DNA of 64,000 nt from Candidatus Spongiisociaceae bacterium (GCA_965262915.1 OZ253564.1:1376001-1440000), one strand, 5' to 3'; positions 3,431 to 53,931 are shown, counted from the first letter of the stretch. Notes: generated from the sequence alone by a model not told the origin. Numbers and translations are program-made.

Positions 3431-3930
3431 CACCCATCAGCCAAAACAGCGCTCGCCGTTAACTTCCGTGTGGCCTCGGAGGATAGGTCACCAGCCACTG
3501 CGATTATCGCGGTTCGGATCCAAAACCGCAACCGATTGCTGTGTGCCTTGTAACAATCCACCCGGTCAGAAGTCGAGTCCGAGGCCACCCCGCCTGCGCT
3601 GCTGGATCTCCTGCTCCTGGGCCTGCCGTTCTTGCAGGGAGGCTAGGGCGTCGTCGATGTACCGGGTACCGACCCATTCGTTGACGACTTGCAGCGCCTC
3701 GACGTGGGTGGTTCCCTCGGGGATGATCCCGAACCCTGCGACGGCTTCCGCCAGACCTCCCTGAGTCCGTCGGCGACGACGCTCAGGGAGGAGTAGGCAG
3801 GCCCGGGCGTCTCAGGACAGCCAGCGCCACATGCCAGGGTACGCCGGCCTGCCCTGGTAACGGTTGCTGCCCCTCGTCTCGGCATCCAACTAGGCCACCC
3901 CCGTATCGAGCAACGGATCCCCCTTCCGCT

Positions 3931-4160
3931 GGGGGCTCGACCGGCCGCCGACAGCGGTTACCCGCCCGATGGTCTCACCAGCGTTGGCGGCTCCGTTTGG
4001 GTGGGTGTCGGAGGGGGGAGTGGAGGCGGCAGTGGTCGGCCGGGTTGTAGATGGATAGACGCGCCGTGCAGCTGTCGGTGGTGCAGTAGCGGCCGGGGGG
4101 ATATGTGCGTGGTGGGAGCCCTTGGTGGCGGACTCTGGTCATAGGGGGTTCACGGTACCC
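3931..4160 (+). repeat. Non-coding module A, copy 1
   Basis: gggggctcgaccggccgccgacagcggttacccgcccgatgg...ttcacggtaccc, repeated near 9976, 44225 and (reverse) 52121-52345. Confidence 0.9.
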
Positions 4161-4641
4161 GGGAGCGGTCTCCGCTGACGGGTGGCGGCAGCGGAGGACC
4201 CCTCCGCTGGGGGCAGCGACTCCTGGGTTTTGGGCGGCGTAGGGCGATTCGACTAACAGCAGCAGCGAGAGCTGGTGCGGCGGGCGGTCGCTGTCTTTCG
4301 CGCCGCCCCGACCTGACGGCCCCCATGTGGGTACCGCCACTGCAGTTTGAGGTCCGCGGCTCCGAGGCATGTACGCGTCGCGGGGCCGCTGCCGTCTCTG
4401 TGCTCGGCCGCTGTCCGTTCCCGTCGCCCAGTTGAGATAGAAGGATTCAGGCGTCGCTGGGCATGTCGGAGAAACACCTGATGACCACCTCGGGATTCCG
4501 CCCGACGAACAGCGTTGCGGCTTGGTTCCGGGCTTCGACTGGTTGTGTAACCACCGGGCTGCCAGCCCATTCCGGGGAGTCTCGAAAGGTTCTATGCTTG
4601 GCCGGTGACAGCGAGAAGGTGGGGACAAGGGATGTCCGGCG

Positions 4642-5030
4642 GTGACCAAGCGGTTCCATCGCGACACCGTCGACGGCGGCGACGACTCGGTGGGCTACTA
4701 CCGGTTCACGCTCTCCGAGGCGAGGGAGGTGGGTATCGGGCTGCGTCGCTTGGACCACAACGCCGACGTGTCCATCGAGGACGACGCCGGGACGGTGCTG
4801 CACCGTGGCACCAACGCGGGCACCGCCAAGGAATGGATCCGGGCGACGTTGCTGGCCGGGACCTAACTACGTGCGCGTCGAGGCCCGCGAGGCCGGCGAC
4901 AACTCCTATGTGCTGCGCTACGGCACCAGGGACGCCGACGCCGACGAGGTGGCACGTCTCCAAGCCGAGGCCGAGGCCGAGGCCGACACCATCGTCTTCG
5001 TGAACAACGACCCCGGTGAAGTCGTGTTGT
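4642..5030 (+). pseudogene. Fragment of a pre-peptidase C-terminal (PPC)-like domain of a large secreted protein
   Basis: DDSVGYYRFTLSEAREVGIGLRRLDHNADV...LLAGT, then a frameshift at ~4864 (acctaactac) into YVRVEAREAGDNSYVLRY. Confidence 0.55.
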
Positions 5031-5031
5031 C

Positions 5032-6408: not shown

Positions 6409-6412
6409 CTAG

Positions 6413-8181: not shown

Positions 8182-8282
8182 CTAGGACCTGTTCACACTT
8201 TGTAGGGTGCAGGCCTTGGTCGACGTTTTTGGGGTGTTCAGCACGCTGTTGAGTTCGCGAACATCCTTCACGTCGATCTGGG

Positions 8283-9234: not shown

Positions 9235-9648
9235 GGGACCTGGTACTTCCGCAAGGACGTGAACGCCCTCACCGATCCGGTGTCCTACTGGGTGAACACC
9301 GACGGGACCCGGGACGTGGGAACCGAGGGCGGGATCCCTGGACCGTACGTCGGGGTGAACTGTGGGGAGGACAGGTTCGTGAACCTCCGCTAGGACTACG
9401 ACGAGGAGACGGTCGAGGTCGAGTACCGCCTCTATCCGGACACCGAGGTGATCTCCGAGACGTTGTGGACAGTCGACGAGCAGGGGAGGAACACGTACCT
9501 CAGCCCGCCCGACGAGTCCACTACGTTCCTGGAGAGGCTACACGCCGAGGGAGCGGAGGAACTCAGGATGCACGTCGAATCTGAGACCTATCGGTTCCCG
9601 ATCGACGGCTTCGAGGTGGTCTTCAGCCGGCTCAACACCGTCTGCTAG
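9235..9648 (+). pseudogene. Disrupted hypothetical (probably exported) protein
   Basis: Continuous frame GTWYFRKDVNALTDPVSYW...NLR*DYDEETVEVEYRL...LNTVC with one internal TAG at ~9391. Confidence 0.4.
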
Positions 9649-9794
9649 GAGCCGGCAGCCTTCCCACCCACCTCAGAGGGCCGCTACTGGAGGCAACGGA
9701 GGACCCCTCCGCTGGGGGCTCGTGTCGGTGGTGTGGTCTCGACGACGGGCGACCTAATGGTGGTCATCCAATATCGGCTCTTGCTCGTGTCGCT

Positions 9795-10203
9795 GTGGGT
9801 GCTGGTGGACAAAGACACGCCGGCGGCGGGTCGGGAGTGGTGGTCGATGGTGTCCCGCATCCGGGGAGCCCGCGGGTAGAGCGGCGTTGTGGGCCCGGGA
9901 ACCTCGGGCCGTTTCCCCCCACATAACGGCCCCTCCCACCTACTGGCGTACTCCCGACCTCTGAAAGGGACTCGGGGGGGCTCGACCGGCCGCCGACAGC
10001 GGTTACCCGCCCGATGGGCCTCACCAGCGTTGGCGGCTCCATTTGGGTGGGAGTCGGAGGGAGTGGAGGTGGCAGTGGTCGGTCGGGTTGTAGATGGATA
10101 GGCGCGCCGTGCAGCTGTCGGTGGCGCAGTGGCGGCCGGGGGGATATGTGGGTGGTGGGCGCCCTGGGGGGCGGACTCTGCTCATAGGGGGTTCACGGTA
10201 CCC
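9795..10203 (+). repeat. Non-coding modules A'+A, copy 2
   Basis: Colinear with the reverse complement of 52121-52524 and with 44125-44445. Confidence 0.9.
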
Positions 10204-10287
10204 GTTTTGTTTAGCTGTGACCGAGGGCTATCGGTTCGACGTTGCATAGCTGGTTGAAGCTGTCCTGATCGGCGATAACACGGGCCG

Positions 10288-10527
10288 TCTCCGGCAGGTC
10301 ACCAGATGCGGCCGATACCCGCAAACGCGGGAGCTCGTCACTAGCCCGGTCTCCGCTGACCATCGTTGACCATGTTAACCGTCGCATATTCGACCGTGTT
10401 ATGCACGACTCGGACGGCCCTACCCCAAAACCGCCATCTACCTGGGGAAACGCCGCAGGCGCGGCTTTACATGATGTCTGTTATCGGACACCGGCGTCCC
10501 CGGCATCAGCCTCCGGAGAAGGCGTCG
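10288..10527 (+). repeat. Non-coding module B, copy 1
   Basis: ggtctccgctgaccatcgttgac...ctacctgggga...gatgtc..ttatcggac; copies at 50555-50778(+) and 51914-52100(-). Confidence 0.85.
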
Positions 10528-11324
10528 CGGATTGCATCACAAAGCCACGGCTCCTGCCCGCAGAACCAACTCTTCAAAAGTAGGGAAAGAACGACTGCCA
10601 AAGCGATGAGCCCCAATGTGCCGATTACCCGCCACGACACGAACCCAGGCCACCACAGGAGAGGTGGCCGTCTCGATTCCCACTCCGGGATGACCAGGTC
10701 GACGTCGTTGTCGTGGTCACTCAACGGCGGCGTGATCCTCTCAGAGGTCTGAGAACCGGACCCGCCGGTAGGTGTGATGTAGTCGAGGAGCCGGTCTTTC
10801 ACATCCCAAGCCTTGGCAAAGAGATCCTCGACCCGCTCTACCGCCTCATCCACCTCCCCAGCAGCGATCTCAGCGACCATCTCCGCGTTGCGATACAAAC
10901 CCTGATGGGCGAGGTTCGCCGATCCGCTCAGCACGGCAGAGCGGGGAACGTCATAAGCAACCCACACTTTCAGGTGTGCTTCAGAGGCCCCACCACGCTT
11001 CTTGTACCAATTTCGGACTACCACATCCGACCGCTCCAAGAAAGCGACTGCTTCGGCACGGTCCTCCGCTTTCGCATGCTTGAAGTACTTAGGCCGGCAG
11101 TCGCCTATAAGAAGCCGCACCCTGCGGTCCCCCGTTCTACGAGCAAGCCAGGCGATCCCCGGCACGCTGCTGTACCCAACCGCGACCGTTAACGGCACCC
11201 CAGGACGATCATCCAAAACTTCTCGATACGGGTAGCTGCCGTCCGATCCATAACCCCCCACTCCTCCTACATTCGACTCGGCAGAGAGTAGACACCCCGA
11301 CAGGCCGACTCCTTCCACCCCCAA
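10506..11324 (-). CDS. Phospholipase D-like (single HxK) nuclease-family protein with C-terminal transmembrane helix; start uncertain
   Basis: Motifs VAVGY, LLIGD, HLKVWV and SGSANL...GLYRNAE, then hydrophobic VIGTLGLIALAVVLSLLL. Confidence 0.7.
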   Translation of the reverse strand: MGVEGVGLSGCLLSAESNVGGVGGYGSDGSYPYREVLDDRPGVPLTVAVGYSSVPGIAWLARRTGDRRVRLLIGDCRPKYFKHAKAEDRAEAVAFLERSDVVVRNWYKKRGGASEAHLKVWVAYDVPRSAVLSGSANLAHQGLYRNAEMVAEIAAGEVDEAVERVEDLFAKAWDVKDRLLDYITPTGGSGSQTSERITPPLSDHDNDVDLVIPEWESRRPPLLWWPGFVSWRVIGTLGLIALAVVLSLLLKSWFCGQEPWLCDAIRDAFSGG

Positions 11325-12443
11325 TAACGGAAGGGATGTCCGTTGCTCGATGCGGTTGACCTGGTCAGAATGCCGGGAGTTGGGGGTAGTCGGAACAGCG
11401 GCGGGAAGGGACGGGACGGCCTAGGCCTCGACTTTTGGTCCGAGCCGCCAGTTTCGGGCGGTAACACCCCAGAAACAGTGTTCGGAACGTTAACCAACAC
11501 AACCCAAAGGTCTAGAAGCCGTTTTGGGGGCCGGGAGATCCCGCCCACGATCTGAACACCCTACGGACGCCAGTTTGCACAACAACACCCAGACGGGGGA
11601 GGCACACCAGGGCGGGCCCCCGCCCCGGCAGGACGCGTCGAAGTTGGTGGACCTCTCCACGCTCGAAACCGAATCGTTAGCCCTGCGTAACGCCGCTGCT
11701 ATCTGAAAACCCTCAAGGAAGGCTGCCTCAGCCGTCCCCTTCGAGTACCTGCCTGCACCCTGCCGTCAGCTGACCCATCGGGCAGCCTCGTGCGTAGGCA
11801 ACGGCCCCCGCCGTTTGGAAGTCCCCGATACTGAGCATCCCCTGCGCCGGCGGTTCATCCTCGGCCGGGTCGGTTCCACCACGCCGGCGAGGACCTCGAC
11901 GGAGATGACCAGTAGCGCTGGCTGTCCTAAGACGCCCGAACCGGCCTGACTGCCCCATGAGCCCCTCCAGCGGAGGGGTCGTCATAGCCAACAGCCAGCT
12001 AACTTGGCTGTAGCAGCGGCAGCCGAGTGGTGAAGTCCCACGGCTAATACCACGTTGCGGCGGGGGAGCACCCCGATATCGGCCTCCGAACACCCGCCAA
12101 CCCGGCGCCGAAACGAAAGGCATTACCCCGAGTCAAGTCCGGTCACGGAGGGTCGGATGACCGAGCGACACATCGAGGACTCGCAGCAGCCACCGACGCC
12201 CTGAACGCAGCCCCCCGGCGGCGCTATGAGGCCCTCTCCGCCGCGCTCGACGCCGGGCGGCCCCAGCAGGACGTGGCGGCTGTGGCCGGTATGTCCCCGC
12301 CTGCGCCGTCCCCGATGATCCGCCAGGAGATCGACGGGCAGTCGTAGGGTGGTCTTGATGGAGGCTCTGGCCGTGGTGGAGGTGACACGACCGGCACGCT
12401 CCGGCGAACTGCGCCGTAGCCAAGCGCCAGGCCAATGCTGGCG

Positions 12444-13199: not shown

Positions 13200-13403
13200 C
13201 AAACGCGCAGGGCCTCTCATTTCCGAAGAGCCGAGAAACGTCAAGCGGTGCGGTTCAACTCACCCACCGACCTGGACGCTGTCGCCGCAGCCCTCAACAG
13301 TCGACCCCGCAAAGCCCTCAACTGGAAGACCCCCGCCGAGACCCTTAACGAACACCTACACTCCCTCAAACAAGGCAGTGTTGCAACGACCCCTTGAACC
13401 TGG
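13200..13403 (+). mobile_element. IS30-family 3' end remnant
   Basis: Similar to the reverse complement of 42335-42540; ends tgttgcaacgaccccttgaacctgg. Confidence 0.8.
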
Positions 13404-13720
13404 TCAATTCACCTCGAGGGCCACCGCCCAGTTGCGCCGGGCATATGGCATCGCACAGTCGGTGGGACGGACCGGGGTGTGCTGGGACAACGCCGCCGCC
13501 GAATCGTTTCTCGGCACCCTCAAGAAAGAACTCGTCAACCGAAACAACTACCGCACCCGCCACCAGGCCCGCCTATCAATCCGGTACTGGATCGAAGCCT
13601 GGTACAACCCCCGCCGGCTTCACTCCACCATCGGACAACAGCCACCAAACGAATGGGAGGACAACTACTACCATCACACGGCCGTATAAACCAAGTGTCC
13701 AGCACATGGGGGGAACTCCA
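13404..13720 (+). mobile_element. IS3-family remnant (integrase core C-terminus plus right end)
   Basis: QFTSR...QSVGRTGVCWDNAAAESFLGTLKKE...WYNPRRLHSTIG; ends gggggaactcca. Confidence 0.85.
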
Positions 13721-14439: not shown

Positions 14440-14745
14440 GTCGCCCGCAGCCTCAGCGACGGCGACGGGCGGGTATTCCCGTCCCCGGCCACCGGTCGGG
14501 CGCTGACCAACGAGGCGTTCCCGAAACTGATGCGAGAACTCGACATCAACGGCACCGCCCACGGCATGCGAACCGCGTTCCGGTCCTGGGCCGCTGAACA
14601 CGGCGTAAGCCGCGAGGTCGCCGAGGCATGCTTGGCCCACGTCGTCAAGGGCGTCGAGGGCGCCTACCAGCGCTCGGACCTGCTCGCGGCCCGTGCCGAG
14701 GTCATGCAGCGATGGGCCCGCTATGTCAGCGGGAAGGGTGCATGA
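14440..14745 (+). pseudogene. C-terminal fragment of a P4-type tyrosine integrase
   Basis: TAHGMRTAFRSWAAE...VAEACLAHVVKGVEGAYQRSDLL; paralogous to 35443-36594. Confidence 0.8.
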
Positions 14746-19974: not shown

Positions 19975-19993
19975 GCAACGCGTATCCAGTTAC

Positions 19994-26276: not shown

Positions 26277-26311
26277 CAGTTAGGGATATCGAGTAACGAT
26301 ATCCCTAACTG
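26277..26311. repeat. Perfect 15-bp inverted repeat
   Basis: cagttagggatatcg-agtaa-cgatatccctaactg. Confidence 0.9.
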
Positions 26312-26529
26312 GCACCTGGCACCTGGCACCTGGCACCTGGCACCTGGACCTGGCACCTGGCACCTGGCACCTGGCACCTGATCCCTGATCCCTGGCACCT
26401 GATCCCTGGCACCTGACCCCTGGCACCTGGCACCTGGCACCTGGCACCTGGCACCTGGCACCTGGCACCTGGCACCTGGCACCTGACCCCTGGCACCTGG
26501 CACCTGGCACCTGGCACCTGGCACCTGAC
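26309..26529 (+). repeat. Heptamer tandem repeat (CTGGCAC)n, about 30 units with CTGATCC/CTGACCC variants
   Basis: Read directly from the sequence; ends a few bases before the mfd ATG. Confidence 0.95.
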
Positions 26530-26533
26530 TACG

Positions 26534-29500
26534 ATGACCACCCTCGTGCGTGCACCGCTCTCAACCCTCCTCGATCGCTGGCGTCCCGACCACCTTCCCC
26601 GGTCTCCCGCAAGACTGGTGGTGCCCGCCGCTGCCCGGGCCATCACCATCGGGGGTATCGCCAGGCGAACCACCGGGCCGTTGCTCGTCGTGGTCCCCTC
26701 CGAGAGGGATGCCGAGGCACTGGCCGCCGACCTGCGCCTGTTCGTCGACGATGTGCTGCTGTTCCCGTCCTGGGAGACGCTCCCGTTCGAACATGTGTCG
26801 CCCAACATGGCGACGATGGCCCGCCGGGCCGAGGTCCGCCACCGGATGGCCGAGGCGCCCGACGGCCTGCTGGTGGTGACCTCCGTGAGGGCGGCCATCC
26901 AGCGCGCCAGCGCGTCCTCCACCCGACCCGTGGTCGTGCGGACCGGCACCGAGTACCCGTTCGAGGATCTGGTGCGCCGCCTCGACGAGGCCGGCTACTC
27001 GCGCACGGATCGGGTCGAGTCACGCGGCGAGTTCGCCGTGCGCGGCGGCATCGTCGATGCCTTCCCGGCCCAGGCCGACGATGCGTTCCGGGTCGAGTAC
27101 TGGGGCGACCACGTCGACGACATCCGGGTGTTCTCGATCGGGTCCCAGCGTTCGGTCAGGCCGGTGGACCGCCTGGTCGCCTACCCGGCTCGCGAGTTCC
27201 GTCCCGATCCTCAGGTCCGGGCTGCCGCCCGGGCTCTCGTATCGGCCGAGCCGTGGGCGTCCTCCATCTGGGATCGGATCGCCCAGGGAGTCAGGTTCGC
27301 GGGGATGGAGTCGTGGCTTCCGTGGTTGACCGAGCCCCGCAACTTCCTCGACGATCTGCCGGATGCGGGCACGCTGGTCCTACTCGATCCGGTACGGGCC
27401 CGATCCAGGGCCAACGATCTCACGGGCGAGGAGCAGGATCTGGCCGAGGCGCTGGCCGAGACCTGGGGTGATCGGTATCCCGACCACGGGCGTAGCCCCG
27501 CCCTGTTCCTCGACCTGGTCTCCTCCCTCCCGAGCCGCCTCATGGAGTGTCCGCCTCTTCCCACCCGACCGGAGGACAGGAGGATCGAGGTGGGCGCGCT
27601 GGATGCCACTCCGGGCGATCCGGAGGCGGTGGCCGCCGGCCTGTCGCGCTTGATGGCCCGCGGTATGGATGTGGTGCTCGCCATGGACGGCGCTCCGGCC
27701 GCTGCCCGGGTGGCGAGGATCCTGAGCGACCATGGGCTCGATCTACCCGTCGTGGAGCGGTTCGGCAAGGGTGCCCGGACCGGGGTCCTCGCCGATGGTT
27801 TGCACACCGGCGTGGTCCTCCCGGCGCTGAGGATCGCGGTCCTGGGGGAGCGGGAGATCGTCGGGCGCCGGAGGACCCATCGCCGTCCGGGCCCGAGACG
27901 GACCGCTTCCGGACCTGCCTACCGGGACCTGACAGCGGGTGACTACGTCGTGCACAGCCATCACGGTATCGGGCGTTTCGACGGCCTCGTCAGCCGCACC
28001 ATCGCCGGCGTCGAGCGGGACTACCTGGTCATCGCCTACGCCAAGGGTGACAAGCTATACGTTCCCACCGACCAGCTGACCGCGGTGCGCAAGTACACAG
28101 GTGGGGAGTCGCCCAGGGTGAGCCGGATGGGCGGCGGCGACTGGGCGGCGACCCGCAACCGGGTACGCCGGGAAGCCTCCGTCCTCGCCGACCACGTGGT
28201 AGCGGTCCACCGGGCCAGAGCCACCGCAGAGGGACACGCCTTCGCGCCGGACACCCCCTGGCAGCGGGAGCTCGAGGACGCCTTTCCCTACGAGGAGACC
28301 CGCGACCAGATACGGGCTATCCATGATGTCAAGGAGGACATGGAGTCCGCCGCCCCGATGGACCGGCTCGTGTTCGGCGATGTCGGGTTCGGAAAGACGG
28401 AGGTGGCGCTGCGGGCTGCCTTCAAGGCCATGACCGACGGGTTCCAGGTGGCGATGCTGTGCCCGACCACCCTGCTGGTTCAGCAACACTTCCAGACCTT
28501 CTTGGAGCGGTTCGATCCCTTCCCGGTGAGGGTGGAGATGCTCAGCCGGTTCCTCACTCCGTCCCAGGCCCGCAGGGTGATTACCGGCCTCGGGACCGGC
28601 GAGGTGGATGTGGTCATCGGCACGCACGGGCTGCTCGCAGACAGGGTCGTATTCCACAAGCTGGGTCTGCTCGTGGTGGACGAGGAGCATCGTTTCGGGG
28701 TCAAGGCCAAGGACCGCATCAAGGCCATGAAGGTGGGGGTGGATGTCCTGACCCTCACCGCCACGCCGATCCCCCGGACGCTGGAGATGGCCCTCACCGG
28801 TATCCGGGAGGTCAGCCACATCCTGACCCCGCCCGAGGACCGCCACCCGATCCTCACCTATGTGGGGCCGGACGATCCACGGGTCACGTCGGCGGCGATC
28901 CGCAGGGAACTGCTGCGGGAGGGACAGGTCTTCTACGTCCACAACCGGGTCCGGTCGATCGAGCACGCGGTGGCGAGGCTGCGCGAGTTGGTACCCGACG
29001 CGCGGTACGGAGTGGCCCATGGCCGCATGAACGAGGGACGGCTGGAACAGACCATGCTGGACTTCTGGGACCACCGCTATGACGTGCTCGTCGCCACAAC
29101 CATCATCGAATCCGGTCTCGACCTGCCCCAGGTCAACACGTTGATCGTCGAGCGGGCCGACCAACTCGGGCTTGCCCAGCTCTACCAGCTGCGGGGCCGG
29201 GTGGGCCGTTCCGGGCGCCGGGCCTACGCCTACCTGTTCCACCCCGAGGCGCCGTCCCTGTCCGAGACCGCCTCCCGGCGCCTGGAGGCGGTTGGGGAGT
29301 TCACCGAGCTGGGATCGGGCCTGCAACTCGCCATGCGCGACCTGGAGATCCGGGGCGCCGGGTCGGTGCTGGGCGAGGTGCAGTCGGGGCACATCGCCGC
29401 GGTGGGTTTCGACCTGTACGTGGAGTTGGTCTCGGAGGCCGTGGCCGAACGGATGGGTACCGAGTTGCCGGTCGACAGACCCAAGCAGGTGCGGATCGAC

Positions 29501-35159: not shown

Positions 35160-35244
35160 GCCCGGGTGACGGAATTGGTAGTCGTGGCGGACTTAAACTC
35201 CGCTGCCCCTAAGGGGCGTGTGGGTTCGAATCCCACCCCGGGTA
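35160..35244 (+). tRNA. tRNA-Leu(UAA), CCA not encoded
   Basis: Acceptor stem GCCCGGG/CCCGGGT; anticodon arm gcgga-cTTAAac-tccgc; long variable arm gcccc-taa-ggggc; T-loop gttcgaatc. Confidence 0.93.
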
Positions 35245-35442
35245 CTGGGTTCCCAGCGTTTCTGTTGGTTCTTACCTGTTTCAGAACTACTTAAAGGGCC
35301 TGGTCACAGCTATGTTCTGCAAGCTTCCGATCCGCCCGGTGACGGCTGGTCGTGCTGTGTCAAGTGTTCCTTGACTTTCCGCTCCGTTCCGGGTAGTTTC
35401 ATCGTACTGTGGGATATATAGTGGGATACCAGGGAGAGGGAA

Positions 35443-36594
35443 TTGCCGAAGTTGACAGCCGCGTTCGTACGATCAGTCACCAAGGCGGGCAAGTACGGCG
35501 ACCAGCACGGCCTGATCCTCCGCGTCCAGCCGTCGGGTTCCAAGCAGTGGATATGGCGAGGAACGGTGGGAGGGAAGCGACGGGATTTGGGGTTGGGTGG
35601 CTACCCGTACGTGAGTTTGGCCGAAGCACGGGCTAAAGCGTTCGAGTACCGCAAGACGGCCCGGGGGGGCAACGACCCCGCCAGGCTACGCTCAGACGGA
35701 GTGCCGACTTTCTCGACCGCGGCCGAAGCTGTGATCGCCCTGTATGCGGGCAAGTGGAAGCCGGGCGGAAAATCCGAAGGGCAGTGGCGTTCCAGCTTGG
35801 CCACCTACGTTGTGCCGGTGATCGGCTCCAAGGGGGTGGATGAGATCACGACTGCGGATGTTATGGCCTGTTTGGCGCCGATCTGGACCACCAAAGCGGA
35901 GACAGCGAAACGGGTGCGTCAGCGGATCAGCGCGATCATGAAGTGGGCGATTGCTGAGGGTCACCGTTCCGACAACCCGGCAGGCGATGCGGTGGTAGCG
36001 GCGTTGCCGAAACAGAACGGCGGCGGGAAGAAGCATCATCGTGCGTTGCCGCACCGCCAGGTTGGCCACGCGTTGGTGAAGGTGCGGGAGTCTTCTGGGG
36101 TTTGTGCGACGGTTCGGTTGGCGTTCGAGTTTTTGGTGTTAACGGCGGCCCGGTCGGCGGAGGTGAGGGGTACGGTCTGGTCGGAGATAGATCTTGATAC
36201 CGGGACTTGGGTGATTCCTGGTGGGCGGATGAAGGCATCCCGCGAGCACAGGGTTCCTTTGTCGGGGAGGGCGGTTGGGGTGCTGGCCGATGCCCGCCGC
36301 TATTCGGATGGCAGCAGTTGGGTGTTCCCGGCGAAATCGGGTGGGGAGATCCCGTCGTGGGTTCTTACCAAACTGCCTATACGGCTTGGTCTGGGGGGCA
36401 CTTTGCATGGGATGAGAAGCTCGTTTCGGGATTGGTGTGGTGAGACAGGTGTTGCCCGTGAGGTGGCGGAGGCGTGTTTGGCGCATCGGGTGGGCTCAGC
36501 CGCGGAGCAGGCGTACGCTCGGAGTGATTTGTTGGAACGGCGCCGCCGACTCATGGAAGCCTGGGCCCAGTACGTCACCGGCGCCCGAACCTGA
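35443..36594 (+). CDS. P4-type tyrosine integrase of a tRNA-Leu island
   Basis: Arm-binding N-terminus (GKYGDQHGLILRV, LGLGGYPYVSLAEAR); LTAARSAE, HGMRSSFRDW and LAH...AYARSDLL. Confidence 0.95.
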   Translation: MPKLTAAFVRSVTKAGKYGDQHGLILRVQPSGSKQWIWRGTVGGKRRDLGLGGYPYVSLAEARAKAFEYRKTARGGNDPARLRSDGVPTFSTAAEAVIALYAGKWKPGGKSEGQWRSSLATYVVPVIGSKGVDEITTADVMACLAPIWTTKAETAKRVRQRISAIMKWAIAEGHRSDNPAGDAVVAALPKQNGGGKKHHRALPHRQVGHALVKVRESSGVCATVRLAFEFLVLTAARSAEVRGTVWSEIDLDTGTWVIPGGRMKASREHRVPLSGRAVGVLADARRYSDGSSWVFPAKSGGEIPSWVLTKLPIRLGLGGTLHGMRSSFRDWCGETGVAREVAEACLAHRVGSAAEQAYARSDLLERRRRLMEAWAQYVTGART

Positions 36595-41048: not shown

Positions 41049-41653
41049 TGGCGCAGCGGTGGGAACCGGCGGGGGTCGGCCTTGGGGTCCCGGCAGCCGC
41101 CCACCTTGGTGGGGTACTCGTGTACCTCCAGGGTCGTGCGTCTTCGGACACCACCCGCCGACCCCCGGCGTCCCCTCGGGTGGAGGGGCCGCGGGTGGGT
41201 CGGTGCGGCGTGGTCGGAGGGTGAGGTGCCCGTGTTCGGGAGCGGCGAGGCCGGGCGGTGCGGGGTTTCTCTGCTTGGGGGGCGGGGTGCTTTCGGTGTG
41301 GCTGCGTGACGGGTCTGGTATTGGTGGGCTGACCTGGGGGTTTGAACCGCACCGGGTTTTCCGGAGACTCGATTAGTTGGGAGATAATGGAGTCATGGGA
41401 AGACTGATGATGTATTCGCCGGAGGTGCGGGAGCGTGCTGTCCGGTTGGTGTTGGAGCATCGGGGGGAGCACCGCTCGGAGTGGGCGGCTATCTGTTCGA
41501 TAGCGGAGAAGTTCGGCTGTTCGTCTGAGACGCTACGCAAGTGGGTGCGGCGTGCTGAGACGGATCAGGGTCTGCGGCCTGGGTTGACGAGTCCAGAGCG
41601 GAGCGGCTCAGAGCCTTGGAGCGGGAGGTGCGGGAGCTGCGGCGGGCGAATGA

Positions 41654-43788
<2,135 letters not shown>

Positions 43789-44124
43789 CAATATTTGTCC
43801 ATTCGTTACACGAACCGGCTGGCGGAAGCCGGCATCGAGCCATCGGTCGGCTCGGTTGGGGATTCGTACGATAACGCCCTCGCGGAGTCCGTCATTGGTC
43901 TGTACAAGACAGAACTCATCCACAAACGCGCTCCGTGGAAGGACCTCGACCAGGTCGAGTACGCCACCCTCGAATACGTGGACTGGTTCAACCACCGGCG
44001 GCTTCTCGAACCCATCGGAGACATCCCACCAGCAGAGAAGGAGGCCAACTACCATCAACAACAGGAACGAGTCCAGCTAGCTGGACTCAAGTAAAACACT
44101 CTCCGGCAAACCCGGTACGGTTCA

Positions 44125-44445
44125 GGTAGAGCAGCGTTCCGGGCCTGGGAACCTCGGGCTGTTTCTCCCCACGTAACGGCCCCGCCCATCTGCTGGCGTA
44201 CTCTCGACCTCTGAAAGGGACTCGGGGGGCTCGACCGGCCGCCGACAGCGGTTACCCGCCCGATGGTCTCACCAGCGTTGGCGGTCCCGTTTGAGGGGGG
44301 AGTGGAGGCCGCAGTGGTCGGTCGGGTTGTAGATGGATAGGCGCGCCGTGCAGCTGTCGGTGGCGCAGTGGCGGCCGGGGGGATATGTGGGTGGTGGGCG
44401 GCCTTGTTGGGGGCGGGCACTGGTCATAGGGGGTTTCACGGTACG
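44125..44445 (+). repeat. Non-coding modules A'+A, copy 3 (truncated by the IS3 end)
   Basis: Matches 9876-10200. Confidence 0.9.
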
Positions 44446-44451
44446 CGTTTG

Positions 44452-44697
44452 CTATCGCACCGGTTTTGGTGTTCGGTGGCGTCGTGATCTCTCGGCTACT
44501 GCCGTCACCGAGATGGCTACCAGCAGAGTCCCAAGGGTGAGCGGCGCAGTCATGGTGGCGGTCAGTGCCCAGGCCTCGGGTTGCACACCGGCGACTTCTA
44601 CGTTCAGGATCCGGGTAACGGCGACAAACAGGACTAGCAGTGCTAGGAAACCGCCGCCAATAACAGTTACCCGTCTAGTCCAACGGTAACTCGCCAT
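44452..44697 (-). CDS. Small two-TM membrane protein
   Basis: gaggagg RBS; two hydrophobic segments; lies between modules A and D. Confidence 0.6.
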   Translation of the reverse strand: MASYRWTRRVTVIGGGFLALLVLFVAVTRILNVEVAGVQPEAWALTATMTAPLTLGTLLVAISVTAVAERSRRHRTPKPVR

Positions 44698-45174
44698 GAT
44701 ACCTCCTCAACAATCCCACAGTGGGATAGATAACCTAAGCGTACCGGGTATGGGCGCTTACCCGAGGGGAACCCAGACAATCGGACCGAGGGCTGCAAAC
44801 TTAGAACGGCCAAGCTGTATGGGTCGTGGCCGGGTTCTCCCAACCCCCAAATCGGCTTCCGGGCTTTTGGGTCGCGTTGGTTAACGGTTCGGGGGTCGGG
44901 TTCGGGGGTGTTTCCGCCCGAAACTGGCGGCTCGAAAATCATCAGAGGCTGAGGCCGGGTCTGGCCTGGCCCTTCCCCGCTGTCAGCAACGGAGGACCCT
45001 TCCGTGGGAGGGGCTTAGGGGGCAGTTAGGCAGGCTGGGCGTTTCAGGACAGCCAGCGCGCGGGTAGGGAGGCTGTGGGGTGTGTGCCCGGGTGGGGAAA
45101 TCCACCAGTTGAGGAGGTTCCTCGGGTTTGATACCGAGTGCAAAAAACTCACCCCAACTGGTGGAGACATCATT

Positions 45175-45603: not shown

Positions 45604-46011
45604 TTACGGCTTCTGCTGGCCCCTTAGTTTCGGGGTGGTGAAGGGATGCAGCAACAGATGCTCGTTGAGAGTCCCCATCTCGGCTGCTGTCGCCATGGCC
45701 TGGGCAAGGAGATCGAAGTCCTCGGCTTTGAACCCTCGGGCAACCAACTTGTCGAACTGGGTCAGCGCCTCCATGACCTCAGCGTCATCGGAGAACGCCA
45801 CGACCACCTCGTTCAGGGCAACCCAGAACTCTTCTGTATCAGGCGCTCCTTTAACAAGCGTGTGGCGAGCGCCGACTAGCTTGCGGAGCACATCCCGGCG
45901 CATACGCCGCCGCTCGGACTCGTCAGCCAACTTCTGCGTGCGCTGTATAGCCCAGCGGGTCACAGCGAACCCGGATACAGCCAACAAGAGCGCCGCCCCT
46001 AACTCCCACAT
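45604..46011 (-). CDS. Membrane-anchored hypothetical protein (DUF6680-like)
   Basis: N-terminal TM helix, then [12 protein letters not shown]...[12 protein letters not shown]...LLAQAMA. Confidence 0.55.
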
Positions 46012-46208
46012 CGCTCCACACCTTAGAACCGCGTGCGCCAACCTGTGTTGTGGTCCCCTCTCGGGCAAGCCCTCCCGCTCTTCGAATGAAAGACCAGCAA
46101 CGGACCACCCTTCCGCTGCGGGGCTCAGGCACGGTGGCTGTGGCACCGGTGGCAACTGGCGGGTTCCCTTTCGGTTCGGCCCGGTGTCGTCGGGTTGTTG
46201 GTGGCACG

Positions 46209-46571
46209 ATGAGAGAAGCCCCGATTTCGAAAGGGAGAAATATCTTGTCGAGGCAGACCGAACTGCATAAGATCTTACAAGCCAAGAAGGACCTTGACCC
46301 TGTTGAGCAGGCCCAGTTCGAGTCGGCGTATTCTCGTCAACGCAAAGACCCGACGGTAGCTCTGCTCCTGAGCCTCTTCTTAGGAGGGCTGGGAGTGGAC
46401 CGCTTCTACATTGGCCATATCGGACGCGGCATCGCGAAGTTGCTCACGCTCGGCGGTCTCCTTATCTGGCAGATCGTCGACTGGTTCCTGATCCGCCGCC
46501 GAACCGCCGCCAAGAACGCTAAAACGATCCGTGAGGTCAGGGCGGCAATCCTCGCAGCTAGAGCGTCCTAA
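46209..46571 (+). CDS. TM2 domain protein
   Basis: [24 protein letters not shown]...WQIVDWFLI. Confidence 0.85.
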
Positions 46572-46944
46572 CCCCCGTCCTAGCGGGCTGTTCGCCGCTG
46601 GGCGGCAGCGGACACCCCTTCCGTTGGGGGGCTCAGGGGGTGGTGGGGTGCGTTTCGTCCGTGTCGAGACCCTCGGCTGGACGGTACCCGGACGAAAGTC
46701 CTCCCCTCTTACCACCGTGCGGCACGGTCCTTGGTCATCGGACGGGTTCGGCGAGTCGCCCCTCGGGGTCGTGTCGCCGATGTGCTGGAAGCGGGATGAT
46801 CCTGTGGGTTGCATGCCGAACATTGTCTTACCGCAGGTTGGCGCCAACAACCGGTGACATACCCGTACCTGCCCTTAGACACTGAGGGATAGACCAGGGT
46901 GATGCCCTATAGACAATCCGTTCGAGGTGTCGGATAGTTAGGTC

Positions 46945-48468: not shown

Positions 48469-48719
48469 AACGCCATACGTTCAATGCTTTCTCGCTGGTG
48501 TTCGGAGCAATACTGATCCTGGCGGCCGCGTGGAGCGCATTTTCGGGCCAAGGATGGTTGTTCGACATCCCCCACTGGTTGGTGCCCACGGCGGCGATCC
48601 TCGTCGGTGCCGCTCTGATAAGCCCCTTGTTCGCCTCCAAACAGAGCAACAGGGAACACCCCGAAGAGAACGGTGCGGTCGCCCAGTCCCAGGAGACGAA
48701 CAACCCTGCTCCCGGCTAG
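48465..48719 (+). CDS. Small membrane protein coupled to the PspC gene
   Basis: ATGA overlap; MKRHTFNAFSLVFGAILI... Confidence 0.7.
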   Translation: MKRHTFNAFSLVFGAILILAAAWSAFSGQGWLFDIPHWLVPTAAILVGAALISPLFASKQSNREHPEENGAVAQSQETNNPAPG

Positions 48720-49344: not shown

Positions 49345-49536
49345 CACACCCAACACTCGGTCGGACCTCAAAGCCCACAACCGCACACCCCGGCAGTCAC
49401 CTGAGCTGTCATTGTGTCTAGGCTGTCGAGTCTCGGCGCGGCATCGAAATCGGAACGGCAGACGGTGCGGATGCTTGAGCGATCGGCGGTTTGCTCAAGT
49501 TGATACTCGCAAGCGGTGCTTCCTAGCCTCCCCCAC

Positions 49537-50493
49537 ATGACCGATGATCAGCCCGATCGAAGCCAAATCTGGAATCTGCTGAACTACAAGACCCTGCATG
49601 CGACTGCATCGCTCATGTATCTGCTCCAGGGCATGGAACTGGTCCGAGGGCGGATTCTGCCCACATACAACAGAGTTCCGCCGAACAGCCGCCACGGGGC
49701 AGTCTTTCCGCCGGAACTCTCCTATGTGGATATCCCGCTGGTGGACAACGGTCCGGGCTTCGACCTCAACGAGGTCTTGGGGCGCGAGGGCGAAGCCGAG
49801 CAACTCGCATTCAAAGCCTGGATCGAGGAAACGTACAACATCGTCTGGGAAAGCGATCTACGCAACGTCATGAAAGCGAGCATTGCTGCCAATGACGCGA
49901 TTCGCCCACGAGCCAACCCCTGGGGCGATCTGAGGCACATCAGAAACGATCTCGTGCACCACGCTGGCATCGCGAGCGCCCAAGAGACCGGCAAGTGCAC
50001 TGTCCTCAGATGGTTCGAGCCAGGCGATCCGATGATTCTCACGATGGGTCACGTGCTTGACTTCCTCAACCACATGAACCTCATGAACCTGATGGGCGGG
50101 TTCATATCCGGAGCTGCAGCCAGGTGGTTCGTGTACCCCCAGATGCGCAGCGCACTGGAGGAACGGGAAACCCCCGAAATCGTCTCGCTGCGCATCGTGT
50201 TCATCGGAGCGGACGACGACGGCACCAGCGCCCACGGCATCTGTGTTGCCTTCGACAACGGAGTCTGGGCGAAGACTCCATTCAGGCATCCTGCCAACGG
50301 TACGCCGATACCGGACCGCATGGCATTCATGGAACAAACCCTCGTTGACGACGACGGCAATGTGAGGCTCGCCAACGGAACCACCCTCGACCGACGCGAC
50401 CTGTACCTGTCCGGCATCGCCGTCATGTTCGGCGACGTACCACAAGACGACAAGCCGCCCCTGCCCGGTCCGTGGTTCCAATTCAGAGAATGA
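49537..50493 (+). CDS. Hypothetical protein with RxxxxH (HEPN-like) motif
   Basis: WGDLRHIRNDLVHHAG; intact 318-codon ORF with normal codon pattern. Confidence 0.65.
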   Translation: MTDDQPDRSQIWNLLNYKTLHATASLMYLLQGMELVRGRILPTYNRVPPNSRHGAVFPPELSYVDIPLVDNGPGFDLNEVLGREGEAEQLAFKAWIEETYNIVWESDLRNVMKASIAANDAIRPRANPWGDLRHIRNDLVHHAGIASAQETGKCTVLRWFEPGDPMILTMGHVLDFLNHMNLMNLMGGFISGAAARWFVYPQMRSALEERETPEIVSLRIVFIGADDDGTSAHGICVAFDNGVWAKTPFRHPANGTPIPDRMAFMEQTLVDDDGNVRLANGTTLDRRDLYLSGIAVMFGDVPQDDKPPLPGPWFQFRE

Positions 50494-50554
50494 ACCCGAT
50501 CACAAGGCTCAAATGTGCCGTCCGTGACATCATGCGGCGACGTGACGCCGGACC

Positions 50555-50778
50555 GACTCCGGCAGGTCGCCAGGTGCGGCCGAATGCCCGGAAACGCCGG
50601 GAGTTCGTCTACTGGCCCGGTCTCCGCTGACCATCGTTGACTAGCGCTGTGTGGTGTATATCCAAACGTGGCCGGGCGGGTTTATGCACGGCCCGGCTGC
50701 TGGTTTCCGGAAACCGGCTTCTACCTGGGGAGACGCTGCGGGCCCAGCTTGTCATGATGTCTTTTATCGGACATCACG
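50555..50778 (+). repeat. Non-coding module B, copy 2
   Basis: Similar to 10288-10495. Confidence 0.75.
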
Positions 50779-51018
50779 TTCCCCCGCCGGTGTCCGCCCC
50801 GTTGGTCTTGGTAGCCGGCTACCGGGCTGCACGCTGCGCTGCATCAACGGACTACCCCTCCGCTGGAGGGGCTCAAGAGAGTGTTAGGCAGGCCGGGCGA
50901 CCTATGACAGCCGGCCACAGTTCCCCGTCCAGATCCTCGCCCAGTGTGGGTGATGTCCCGGATTCGGCGTGTGGCTGCCCGGCGGCGGTGAGGAAGCGTT
51001 TGCCCCAATCAGGCGTGT

Positions 51019-51687
51019 TTAGAGCCAGACCTCCACACCGCCCGAGAACGCTGAATCATGTAGTGTCAGTACCGCTCCAGTTCCATCTCGCGGGAAGCTT
51101 TCGGGAACATCGAAGGGCACTATCGCCTCAAAGCTCAGTCCCGGATTTAGGTCCTCTAAGGCGGTGCCGCTCCAGGTAAAAGAGGCAGCATCATATGTAG
51201 CTGCGCCTAATGTGAGTTTTTGATTACCTGCGAAGAAGGACTGCGCTTCGTCGCTGACATTCGTTACCTTTATCCGAGCAATAAGCCACGTACCGAGTGC
51301 CTCATCCTCTAGCCCTCCAGACCCGAGGATCTTGCCTGGCTGTTCTACATCGATAACAACAAACTCAAACTTGCCGTCCCGTACCGGGTCGCCGATGCTC
51401 GCTCGCTTAGGGGGAGGCTTAGTAGTCGTTGTAGTTGTTGTGGCGATGCGCGTCGTCGTAGTAGTCGTTGCCTCGGAACGAGGTTGAGCACTAGTTGGGG
51501 ACTGATTGCTCCCGGTGTCGCTACCGACGATGCTACCAACGATGAGAACACCAAAGGAAGCGGCCACAATCAACAGAGCACGCGACCGCGGGATCCGCAG
51601 CGCCTTGATCGGGTAGATGACGTTGACAAGGCCGAGAAGGAACGATAACAACCCCAGTAGGACGAGAAGAGTGCCTAAAGTGTCCAA
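51019..51687 (-). CDS. DUF4352-domain membrane-anchored protein
   Basis: Two TM helices, Thr-rich linker, IGDPVRDGKFEFVV, LNPG...FDVP and LHDSAFSGGV. Confidence 0.85.
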   Translation of the reverse strand: MDTLGTLLVLLGLLSFLLGLVNVIYPIKALRIPRSRALLIVAASFGVLIVGSIVGSDTGSNQSPTSAQPRSEATTTTTTRIATTTTTTTKPPPKRASIGDPVRDGKFEFVVIDVEQPGKILGSGGLEDEALGTWLIARIKVTNVSDEAQSFFAGNQKLTLGAATYDAASFTWSGTALEDLNPGLSFEAIVPFDVPESFPRDGTGAVLTLHDSAFSGGVEVWL

Positions 51688-51913
51688 CTTAATCTCCCAT
51701 CCTTCAAGAACCTAACTCCTTTAGGGGTGCCAGCCTGCTCGGAGTCGCTTCAGGTCCCTTTAAGGGTTGAACCCTAGCTCCGGAGCCGTCCCGACCTCGC
51801 TGGGGTCTGTGTCAGGAAGCTGTCCTCAACGCGGGGCGCTACCCAAGTTAACAAAGTCGGGTCTTCCCCGGACAGGAGGGGTGCCATAGGTCCCCGTCCC
51901 AGGTCCCTCCCCC

Positions 51914-52524
51914 CGACGCCTTCTCCGGAGGCTGATGCCGGGTAGGCCGTTGTCCGATAATAGATATTATGTAAACCTGCGCCCGTGGTGTTTCCCCAGG
52001 TAGATGGCGGTTTCCGGCAGTAGGCGGCCGGTGACGTGCATAACACGGTCGAATATGCGGCGGTTAATACCGGTCGACGATGGTCAGCAGAGACCGGGCT
52101 GGTAGAGGAGCTCCCGGCGGGTACGGTTAACCCCCTATGAGCAGAGTCCGGCCCCCAGGGCGCCCACCACCCACATATCCTCCCGGCCGCCACTGCGCCA
52201 GCGACAGCTGCGCGGCGCGTCTGTCCATTTACAACCCGACCGACCACTGCGGCCTCCACTCCCTCCGACACCCACTCAAACGGAGCCGCCGAGGCTGGTG
52301 AGAGCATCGGGCGGGTAGCCGCTGTCGGCGGCGGGTCGAGCCTCCCGAGCCCTTTCAGAGGTTGGGAGTACCCCAGTAGGTAGGAGGGGCCGTTACGTGA
52401 GAGGAGACGGGCCCGAGGTTCCCGGGCCCAGAACGCTGCTCTACCCGCGGGCTCGCCGGATGCGGGACATCATCGACCACCACTCCCGATCCGCCGCCAG
52501 CGTGTCTTTATCTACCAGCACCCC
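51914..52524 (-). repeat. Non-coding modules A'+A+B, copy 4 (inverted)
   Basis: Reverse complement of 9795-10203 joined almost directly to 10345-10527. Confidence 0.9.
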
Positions 52525-52594
52525 AGCCGAGGCCCTCACCGAACACCTAGACTCCCTCCAACAAGGCACTGTTGCAACGACCCCTTGAACCTGG
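52525..52594 (+). mobile_element. IS30 3' end remnant
   Basis: gccgaggccctcaccgaacacctagactccctccaacaaggcactgttgcaacgaccccttgaacctgg. Confidence 0.75.
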
Positions 52595-53312
52595 TGAGAC
52601 CACACCAACCGACCCCAGCCCCCAGCGGAAGGGTGCTCCGCTGCCGCCACCCGGCGACAGCCATGGAACCGGGTTCCCCAGCCCGTCGTGGCGGCTGTGG
52701 CCCAGCATGTCGCCGTCTGCGTTCTCGAGGGGGTTTCGGGCGGAAACACCCCAAAACCCGCCGTCAGAACGCTAACCACCATAACCCAAAGGCCTAGAAG
52801 CCGTTTTGGGGGCCGGGAGAACCCCGCCACGACCTAGGAGGCCTGACCGCTCCGGTTTCCACGTGTCAGCTGGTGCAGCCTGCGAGCGAGCTACGAGCCT
52901 AGGGGGTCCGTCCCCAACCGCCGACGGACAGCTGCGCCGCCGAATCCGGGGGCAACCCACCCGCCGCCGGCGACGACCCCGACGGGGGGCTATGACGCTG
53001 GCTGTCCTGAGAACGCCCGGCCTGCCTGACTCCCCTCCAGCGGAAGGGAAGTCCCCTGCCGCCGCCCAGCGAATTGCCAGGTAACCGGTTCCCCTACGTC
53101 GTGGCAGTTGGGGGGACGGGGGGTTTCAGGTTGCTACTACGGAATTCCTGGTTACGAAATGCCGGCGCCTTACCGAAGGTTGTGGGTCGCCTCGGTGCGG
53201 AACAGATGCACGAGGGTTACGGCAATCTGGACCGCTGCTTCGGCCCAGGCTGCTTTACAAGGGCCAGTTGGGGCAGCGCTGCGAGTCGGCAGCGATTCTC
53301 TTGCAGGATCAA

Positions 53313-53594
53313 TCAAAGGCGTTGTCTCTTGCGCGCTTCAAGGATTGCGTTGTTGTAATTATCGACCCAACCCTTGACGAGAAACAGATTAACCACAAAC
53401 CATATTCCCGTCACAATTAGAGGAATAATCAGCCACCCCAATAAAACGACGATAGCCCAATAGATCACTCCCAAAGTCACTTTTCTCAGGAAAAAGAAAT
53501 GGATAGGAAATATGATGGCCAGCGCCATCATAGCTCCGAAGCCCCTAAGAGGCTTCGCGGCTAGTTGCTCGTCAGGTAGCCACTGATCAGTCAT
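53313..53594 (-). CDS. TM2/NINE-like small membrane protein, lower GC
   Basis: aggagga RBS; IHFFFLRKVTLGVIYW...GIWFVVNLFLVKGWVDNYN. Confidence 0.7.
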   Translation of the reverse strand: MTDQWLPDEQLAAKPLRGFGAMMALAIIFPIHFFFLRKVTLGVIYWAIVVLLGWLIIPLIVTGIWFVVNLFLVKGWVDNYNNAILEARKRQRL

Positions 53595-53931
53595 ATTAGT
53601 GGTTCCTCCTTTGTTGGGTTGGATGAACCGGTATATCGAGAGGAGACTTACCTCGCTACTTGCCCACAAGTAGTCGCCATTGTTCCCAGCCCGGCTATAC
53701 CCTGCGAGGTTAGCCGGGTCCTTCACCACCATGAGGGGTCAACGCCTCGGAACCCCGAACCCCCAGCCCTCACAGCGGAAGGGTAGTCCGCTGCCCATAG
53801 CGGTGAACAGCCAGCTAACCGATTGGCCCTGCGCGGAAATGTGGGTTGGGTGGGTTGAAATCCTTGGATTGGGGGTGAGGCCTCGCTGGAATCGGTGAAT
53901 AGCGAAGTCGCCGAATCCAGGAGAGGCCTCG

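Follow-up and report, generated by a model that had tools for sequence, protein, structure and literature searches.

The stretch of DNA analyzed here, referred to throughout as the window, comprises 64,000 nucleotides (nt) from a Candidatus Spongiisociaceae bacterium (GCA_965262915.1, OZ253564.1), corresponding to bases 1376001-1440000 of a single 5.06-Mb contig of 64% G+C; positions are counted from its first base unless given as genome positions. It carries genomic islands that are punctuated by a short inverted repeat of the form CARCGGA-N7-TCCGYTG, the subject of this report, which we call the site or core. With at most one mismatch this pattern is present 11 times in the window (starts at 3911, 4189, 9694, 11325, 44987, 46098, 46606, 50845, 52623, 53038 and 53773), against a chance expectation of 0.10, and none of 100 shuffled sequences reached 11. 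A twelfth copy, consisting of the right arm and flank only, was found at 11954-11983 on the minus strand in a profile search with the family profile (E = 0.005). A first-pass annotation of the window had described a hairpin of about 28 bp in about 12 copies; the repeat is real, and 11 of the 12 places and strands were recovered, the copy placed near 11959 on the minus strand being the one reduced to a right arm and flank, while the conserved unit is longer than proposed, about 55-60 nt by consensus. The same annotation reported no copies in the 15.9-35.2 kb core of the region, and in our scan of the window the entire interval 11983-44966 is indeed free of sites.

The left-hand group of sites begins with CAACGGA-TCCCCCT-TCCGCTG (3911-3931, plus strand), which is directly followed by a 230-nt module designated D4. 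The next copy, CAGCGGA-GGACCCC-TCCGCTG (4189-4209, plus strand), has the same spacer as the direct copy CAACGGA-GGACCCC-TCCGCTG (9694-9714, plus strand), which is located 46 nt past the stop codon of a small open reading frame (ORF; 9394-9648) and is followed by modules D1 and D4. A site with one mismatch (right arm TCCGTTA; 11325-11345, minus strand) lies about 75 nt upstream of a PLD-like gene (10506-11324, minus strand), and the degenerate core at 11954-11983 has upstream of it a tandem motif, GTGGTAT-N5-GTGGGAC (12035-12053, minus strand; genome 1388035), that is part of the Ua unit described below. The right-hand group opens with a one-mismatch site (right arm TCCGTGG; 44987-45007, plus strand) that is preceded by module Uc, containing GTTTCCGCCCGAAAC at 44910-44924, and followed by module D2. 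The site at 46098-46118 (plus strand) occupies the divergent gap between a gene at 45604-46011 (minus strand) and a TM2-domain gene (46245-46571, plus strand; Pfam TM2, E = 4e-19), and the site at 46606-46626 (plus strand) lies 35 nt past the TM2 stop codon. Another copy (50845-50865, plus strand) separates the convergent genes 49537-50493 (plus) and 51019-51687 (minus) and precedes a D2 module, and that at 52623-52643 (minus strand) is preceded by module Ub, with GTTTCCGCCCGAAAC at 52733-52747, and followed by D1 and D4 modules. Finally, a one-mismatch site (left arm CAGGGGA; 53038-53058, minus strand) and an intact one (53773-53793, minus strand) are positioned, respectively, about 255 nt downstream and about 180 nt upstream of a gene of low G+C content for a 93-amino-acid (aa) membrane protein (53313-53594, minus strand). 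The sites at 46098 and 46606 are direct and enclose the TM2 gene only, as had been noted previously, and the direct pair 53038/53773 likewise encloses a single gene; the TM2 likeness claimed for this second gene was not upheld, since its product has no Pfam match at E ≤ 0.01 and a BLASTP comparison with the TM2 protein gives E = 0.08.

Between the two groups of sites lies the tRNA-Leu(taa) gene (35160-35245, plus strand), with the anticodon arm tgGCGGA-CTTAAAC-TCCGCTG, which forms the left attachment (att) site, attL, of an island of 88 kb; fifteen of the sites fall within this island. Close to it, a gene for a P4-like tyrosine integrase (35443-36594, plus strand; Arm-DNA-bind_3, Phage_int_M and Phage_integrase domains; 19 matches in the genome) is immediately preceded by the tandem arm-type motif GTGGGAT-N5-GTGGGAT (35409-35427, plus strand). 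Other P4-like integrases are encoded at genome 2904078, 504591 and 1239159. The first island retains a C-terminal fragment of a P4-like integrase (14443-14736, plus strand; genome 1390443-1390736).

Genome-wide, the exact pattern is present at 31 places and at none in a reversed-sequence control, and a profile search identified 61 distinct sites in 15 clusters that together make up 4.1% of the genome. The sites are related, clustered copies, and none of the counts given in this report should be read as numbers of independent events. According to gene calls from a simple self-trained caller, which cover 69% of the genome and under-represent island genes, 49 of the 51 sites with at most one mismatch lie outside genes (p about 1e-22), and the two intragenic ones lack the flanks of the family. 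Thirty-three of 49 sites are within 20 kb of one of 31 tyrosine-recombinase matches, compared with 16% of random positions, and by cluster the proportion within 25 kb of such a match is 12 of 15. The genome contains 45 matches to IS110-type transposases, none evidently tied to sites, and two TnpB-like genes, both distant from every site cluster.

The geometry of the site is strict: 58 of the 61 copies have exactly 7+7+7 nt, with the consensus CARCGGA-NNACCCY-TCCGCTG-G. Conservation extends into the spacer, where positions 10-13 are A in 44, C in 52, C in 56 and C in 55 of these 58 sites, and because both the arms and these positions are conserved by sequence, the site is asymmetric. The earlier description of conserved stem arms and variable loops therefore applies to the arms, loop variation being limited to spacer positions 8-9 and 14. 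No arm pair shows compensatory change among the 58 sites; at pair 3/19 the counts (G-C 22, A-C 21, A-T 5, G-T 5) are those of independent assortment, and the other departures from pairing are one-sided. When four copies were folded as single-stranded DNA, the best reached -14.6 kcal/mol (z = -3.1 relative to shuffles), and the remaining three (z -0.7 to -1.1) folded no better than shuffles, the predicted fold bypassing the repeat in two of them. The absence of covariation, together with folding no better than that of shuffles in three of four copies, leads us to regard the repeat as duplex DNA recognized by a protein and partly dyad-symmetric, rather than as a selected hairpin. At the gathering threshold, Rfam 15 matched only a tRNA and an ALIL element in the window, and searches of 20 loci with sites yielded two weak matches below the gathering score (E = 0.28 and 0.39).

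The arms of the site are found in tRNA genes of the same genome. Among 50 tRNA genes compared, tRNA-Asn and one tRNA-Met have anticodon arms (cagcgga-N7-tccgttg) that are identical to the site arms at 14 of 14 positions; the agreement falls to 13 positions in tRNA-Lys(ctt) and to 12 in both tRNA-Lys(ttt) and tRNA-Leu(taa). The tRNA-Asn gene is adjoined by a P4-like integrase 76% identical to that of the window. The limits of several islands also fall in anticodon arms. An exact 59-nt repeat delimits the 88-kb island: it starts at position 33 of tRNA-Leu(taa), where the anticodon loop begins, and has its second copy at genome 1499380. For tRNA-Ile, a 47-nt repeat begins inside the 5' anticodon arm and has its second copy 46.8 kb away, and for tRNA-Lys(ctt) a 30-nt repeat from the 3' anticodon arm recurs at a distance of about 11 kb. 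That these repeats begin in the anticodon arms of three different tRNAs indicates that this integrase family crosses over at the anticodon arm in this genome. The copies of the tRNA-Leu repeat occupy window positions 35192-35250 and genome positions 1499380-1499438, and the right attachment site, attR, is followed by TTTCAG...CATAGTCCC.GGTCA, which also follows tRNA-Asn and tRNA-Lys(ttt); this conserved sequence suggests that another island follows in tandem. A second P4-like integrase subfamily (genome 238672, 348567 and 1238968) is 55-56% identical to the integrase of the window and has a 7+7+7 site of its own, CGGCGGA-GGGAGTG-ACCGCCG, 195 nt before the gene; 13 nt of this site are identical, when reverse-complemented, to the 3' end of tRNA-Ser(gga) and tRNA-Ser(tga).

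A second feature links the sites to these integrases. The tandem motif GTGGKAY-N5-RKGGGAY is present 18 times in the genome and four times in the reversed-genome control. Three of the 18 motifs immediately precede integrase genes, those next to tRNA-Leu, tRNA-Asn and tRNA-Ile, and a fourth is separated by 36 nt from the core that follows it in the tRNA-Leu attR; variant arm motifs are found 41 nt ahead of the core in the attR of tRNA-Ile and 32 nt ahead of it in that of tRNA-Lys(ctt). Eleven of the remaining motifs are placed 57 nt before a site, an arrangement that defines the Ua unit of about 200 nt, one precedes a left arm only, and two are unexplained. Relaxing the motif adds three sites, bringing the number with a motif at 57 nt to 14 of 61.

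To describe the sequences that meet at the sites, we compared the left (-100 to -21) and right (+21 to +100) flanks of 49 loci. There are 136 pairs of loci that share a flank, of which 63 share the left only, 71 the right only and 2 both, the last two being recent large duplications. The flanks are composed of modules: D1-D4, Ub and Uc, which have 7-27 copies each, abut the site. Module D4, for example, has 12 copies in the genome (88-94% identity), four of them in the window (3931-4160, 9976-10204 and 44225-44443 on the plus strand and 52118-52350 on the minus strand); a site precedes four copies and module D1 precedes eight, and four different sequences follow. D4 contains a long internal inverted repeat and is often preceded by the 260-nt D1; as a candidate structured RNA it has no Rfam match, and four copies compared offer no useful covariation. 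The possibility that D2 represents the end of an opposite-strand gene was discarded because the ORFs there look spurious.

Some paralogous contexts come in filled and empty forms, which differ by a segment between two direct sites. At genome 4435540/4436232 the order is Ua, site, a 692-bp segment with one ORF, site and D2, and at 550200 and 302570 it is Ua, site and D2; the ORF of the segment appears on reading to encode an HNH-like protein. Similar filled and empty contexts are seen at 1222034/1225473 and in the comparison of window sites 44987/50845 with 4436232. Neighboring sites share spacers more often than expected, identical spacers being found in 6 of the 29 direct and in 2 of the 10 inverted pairs of neighbors, versus 5.7% of all pairs (p = 0.005 and 0.001); the window pair 4189/9694 is among the direct ones, as are the genome pairs 56201/56842, 517499/518367, 2848127/2850060 and 4925455/4927294. 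A TM2 paralogue (genome 1238444-1238893) is likewise flanked by two sites, and beside this second TM2 module is a hybrid site (1238964) whose right arm and flank belong to the family and whose left arm and spacer are the end of another P4-like-integrase element. The earlier claim that copies sit at module junctions beside single-gene cargo, in islands, is thus borne out by flank sharing, by filled and empty contexts and by proximity to recombinase genes.

The cargo between sites (10506-11324, 45604-46011, 44452-44697 and 51019-51687, all on the minus strand) consists mostly of small membrane or secreted proteins and nucleases, and includes a PLD-like protein, a DUF4352 protein and proteins of 81 and 135 aa, the last two with a probable hydrophobic N-terminal stretch; some of these genes are much lower in G+C than the genome. 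Joints at sites in contigs from four sequencing runs (45005>46629, 45447>46616, 50843>53825 and 52646>52965) were considered as signs of excision and set aside, as their sides are just 20-37 nt long and paralogous copies explain them. A much lower summed depth over parts of the cargo in three runs was also set aside, contig depth being no valid measure of excision. Among the 24 sequencing runs listed as containing the stretch, none is of RNA. Two further repeats adjoin sites. An 84-nt module (52512-52595 and 13329-13404) with about 25 copies in the genome ends 27 nt from site 52623 and may be a solo end of an insertion sequence (IS) or of a miniature inverted-repeat transposable element (MITE), and a repeat of about 390 nt with 14 copies (53824-54219) begins right after the unit of site 53773 and contains an ORF with paired cysteine motifs that could represent the start of a transposase.

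The unit is conserved beyond this genome. Among 40 relatives searched, the exact site is present in two, three times in G001 and once in G007, and the Ua unit was detected in four of seven other species of the genus and in none of 33 genomes of other genera. In G001, G002, G005 and G007 the arm motif and a recognizable core are kept 57 nt apart, and the intervening sequence has diverged. Across 185,579 species genomes the exact pattern was found at three loci, two of which resemble chance matches in coding DNA. The third, on an Acidobacteriota contig from a metagenome-assembled genome (positions 1900-3150), is a complete Ua unit with its core beside genes for a T5orf172 protein, a DNA methylase and GTPase-associated proteins of conflict-system type; it fits transfer on a mobile element and suggests an element family that crosses phyla, the alternative being a binning error. 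Viral contigs gave no match to the site or to the arm motif with site, and plasmids gave none when searched for the Ua unit and for the D1+D4 modules. Metagenome contigs contain the arm motif with a core at eight loci, of which five look like chance (four are one coding sequence and one is AT-rich) and three have a similar layout with other arms; none of the eight adjoins a tRNA.

Taken together, these observations favor, with a probability of roughly 55%, a reading in which the repeat is a 21-bp core-type att site of P4-like tyrosine integrases, a mimic of an anticodon arm that would have been multiplied by nested integration and decay. The evidence at the level of sequence consists of the geometry, the identity with tRNA arms, the use of anticodon arms by these integrases, the arm motifs, the reshuffling of flanks and a layout conserved among relatives; the binding and cutting of the copies by an integrase, the enzyme responsible and the present-day activity of the sites are what we infer from it. 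The site would present two inverted 7-bp integrase-binding arms, CARCGGA and TCCGCTG, around a 7-bp overlap region, copying the anticodon stem-loop of tRNA genes, which P4-like integrases naturally target in this genome. Every insertion into a core already present would double it, yielding attL and attR; nested or tandem integrations followed by decay of the inserts could then leave arrays of cores with remnants, often a single gene, between them, and could join any left flank to any right flank. Of the earlier proposal that the copies are recognition sites for cassette capture and shuffling by a tyrosine recombinase, the tyrosine-recombinase site survives as the best reading, and an attC-like or HUH/REP-like folded mechanism does not. 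Of the three recombinases that had been put forward, the P4-like integrase at 35443 is tied to the sites through the arm-type motifs and the tRNA-Leu direct repeat, and nothing ties the Xer-like genes at 54688 and 58914 to them.

Several observations weigh against this att-site reading. At the tRNA-Leu, tRNA-Ile and tRNA-Lys islands a direct pair delimits an integrase-bearing element, but no pair of repeat sites was found to have an integrase and a Ua arm in the places expected of such an element, nor did we find in the genome any intact element flanked by two sites that carries an integrase at one end and a Ua arm at its opposite end. The integrase beside tRNA-Ile is 74% identical to that of the window, yet the arms of its tRNA differ considerably (gcatcc/ggatg), indicating that core specificity is not fixed within the integrase subfamily. 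The spacer NNACCCY is not an anticodon loop, and the sequence 3' of the site (GGGGCTC...) resembles a tRNA at one locus only. At this locus, genome 2838581, a Ua unit and site run in register into what remains, in diverged form, of the 3' part of tRNA-Leu(taa) and into the flank downstream of that tRNA, a fusion that speaks in favor of the att-site reading. The arm-type motif accompanies only 11-14 of the 61 sites; 11 of 51 are instead preceded by a different conserved inverted repeat, GTTTCCGCCCGAAAC, mostly 77-90 nt upstream in the Ub and Uc units, and the remainder by neither. Finally, spacers differ between sites, with 45 distinct 21-mers among the 58, and this heterogeneity would hinder strand exchange between most pairs of sites.

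Some of these same features are what would be expected of a mosaic intergenic repeat without a dedicated recombinase, such as an array of bacterial interspersed mosaic elements (BIMEs), of neisserial intergenic mosaic elements (NIMEs) or of nested MITEs. The inverted repeat would then act as a hot spot at which illegitimate recombination, recombination between short homologies or slippage during replication shuffles the neighboring modules, and its likeness to tRNA arms would be incidental or no more than ancestral. The many modules that abut the site (D1-D4, Ub and Uc) recombine freely, most sites are without arm-type motifs, spacers are heterogeneous, and the genome is repeat-rich, with a self-match depth of at least 5 over 7.7% of its bases. 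We nevertheless consider this explanation doubtful: the strict 7-nt spacing, the asymmetric conservation and the fixed distance of 57 nt to the tandem motif point to a site recognized by a protein, the tandem motif also marks validated attR sites and integrase promoters, and the layout is kept in four other species. The partial dyad symmetry and fixed spacing of the site would also suit an operator for a dimeric repressor encoded by the islands, and the repeat might otherwise be a terminator or RNA stem-loop without a U tract, in either case a regulatory element inherited with the non-coding parts of islands. Copies 9694, 46606 and 53038 do lie 35-255 nt downstream of co-directional genes, copy 50845 lies between convergent genes, and the A-C combination at pair 3/19, present in 21 of 58 sites, becomes G-U on the opposite strand. 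A regulatory origin is nonetheless unlikely, given that ORF ends on either strand are found at no consistent distance or orientation from the sites, and that neither the 134 of 136 flank-sharing pairs with only one flank in common nor the arm-type motifs would be explained. An intrinsic terminator specifically was rejected: no copy is followed by a T-run, three of four copies fold like shuffles, and site 46098 lies between divergent gene starts.

Two other kinds of recombination site merit consideration. In the first, the repeats would be dif-like sites for Xer-type recombinases such as that encoded at 54688-55686, bounding small modules in the manner of the plasmid dif (pdif) modules of Acinetobacter. 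This Xer-like recombinase (best NCBIfam match XerC, 140 bits) is about 900 bp from site 53773, and single-gene modules bounded by sites have a published precedent in dif modules. The geometry of 7+7+7 nt is unlike that of dif, which is laid out as 11+6+11, the only paralogue of the Xer-like gene (4392881) is 30-40 kb from any site, and direct pairs outnumber inverted ones among adjacent sites (29 against 10), so that we regard dif-like sites as quite improbable. Single-stranded hairpins, processed like integron attC sites or like the ends of repetitive extragenic palindrome (REP) or IS200-type elements cut by an HUH enzyme, are the least probable of all and largely refuted, even though the short G+C-rich inverted repeats lie beside single genes and the best copy folds well. 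A search for Y1/HUH transposases (PF01797) gave no match in the genome and was positive in 6 of 14 control genomes, and no integron integrase (TIGR02249) exceeded the cut-off of 265 bits, the best score genome-wide being 63 bits; recombinase 54688 scores 75.8 bits. Moreover, the arms do not covary, three of four copies fold no better than shuffles, both orientations are found within one array, and the consensus has neither GTTRRRY ends nor a GTAG foot, the last point having been correctly noted in the first-pass annotation, whose suggestion of attC-like or HUH/REP-like sites is contradicted by these findings.

An extension of the att-site reading, which we offer as tentative and rather less than probable, is a form of gene shuffling independent of integrons, in which P4-like integrases would use the proliferated anticodon-arm mimic as a portable, double-stranded att core, and short modules bounded by two cores could be cut out, taken up elsewhere and passed among islands as well as among species of the genus. 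Candidate shuffled modules could include the TM2 gene, the HNH-like ORF, the PLD-like gene and the small membrane proteins. If the att-site reading is correct, the target of an integrase would have escaped from tRNA genes and multiplied within islands, producing patchworks with reusable recombination seams and a system intermediate between classical tRNA-targeted islands, the mosaic repeats of Neisseria and the dif modules of Acinetobacter. The combination of arm motif, 57 nt and core would also provide a practical marker for island boundaries and module seams in the genus, and the sites would provide defined substrates for studying how core specificity evolves in P4-like integrases.

Other repeated or mobile sequences in the window are noted here as separate observations. 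The 391-aa tyrosine recombinase gene at 58914-60089 (minus strand) has 6-8 copies in the genome by self-match depth and is therefore probably part of a separate mobile element present in several copies. An IS3-type element (41336-44100) with an ALIL frameshift pseudoknot (41672-41788) and HTH_21/rve pieces (41730-42383 and 43741-44094) seems to have been interrupted by an oppositely oriented gene for an IS30-like transposase (42342-43742). About 35 heptamer repeats of the CTGGCAC / CCTGGCA type (26295-26548) lie before and over the start of a 1141-aa ORF (26534-29959); the self-match depth there, up to 311, indicates that similar arrays exist elsewhere in the genome, and heptamer runs also follow tRNA-Leu(caa) and tRNA-Leu(gag). 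A 707-aa ORF (60709-62832, minus strand) is composed largely of about 11 tandem 111-nt (37-aa) repeats.

The arrangement of the sites invites comparison with several known systems. Integron cassettes likewise consist of a single gene followed by an imperfect inverted repeat, and in both cases a tyrosine recombinase is involved or suspected; attC sites, however, are about 60-140 bp long, whereas the site described here is 21 bp with no conserved end motif, is found in mixed orientations in each array, and lacks both an accompanying IntI and evidence of folding. REPs and BIMEs served by REP-associated tyrosine transposases (RAYTs) resemble the sites in being G+C-rich palindromic units of non-coding DNA that form mosaics with other motifs, but they are dispersed, whereas the sites are clustered in about 4% of a genome in which we found no RAYT/Y1 transposase and have no GTAG head.

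In sequence logic, the closest parallel is with the anticodon-loop att sites of tRNA-targeted islands. Subfamilies of integrases that cross over in the anticodon loop with flanking symmetry have been described, and for ICEAfe1 19 bp around the anticodon loop are enough for integration (bioRxiv 10.1101/2020.11.02.365908). The repeat shares with such sites the inverted 7-bp arms, the 7-nt center, the identity of its arms with tRNA anticodon arms of its own genome and, in a minority of copies, the arm-type tandem sites at a set distance. Unlike them, it is present in about 60 copies outside tRNA genes, has the center NNACCCY, mostly lacks arm-type sites and lies at the junctions of many unrelated modules, so that it belongs with these att sites in part.

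In architecture, the neisserial mosaic elements are closest. In Neisseria, 20-bp dRS3 inverted repeats (ATTCCC-N8-GGGAAT) flank families of RS repeats, act as the integration site of filamentous prophages and have been proposed to bind a recombinase (PMC1797815). Both repeats are short and inverted with a variable center, punctuate arrays of many module families of 50-500 bp, attract IS fragments and have been linked to integration by proposal; the sequences are unrelated, and the repeat described here differs in its integrase-bearing islands, its mimicry of a tRNA arm and its tens rather than hundreds of copies. The pdif modules of Acinetobacter plasmids are genes bounded by Xer sites that move between replicons (PMC6449649; PMC13141974). 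They too are small, frequently contain a single gene and are delimited by short recombinase sites in many combinations, but the recombinase family and the geometry differ, and the sites of this genome are mostly direct, lie in chromosomal islands and are known from sequence alone. Thus, the repeat is closest in architecture to the neisserial mosaic elements and also to the dif modules, being a member of neither, and closest in sequence logic to the anticodon-loop att sites, with which it has partial membership.

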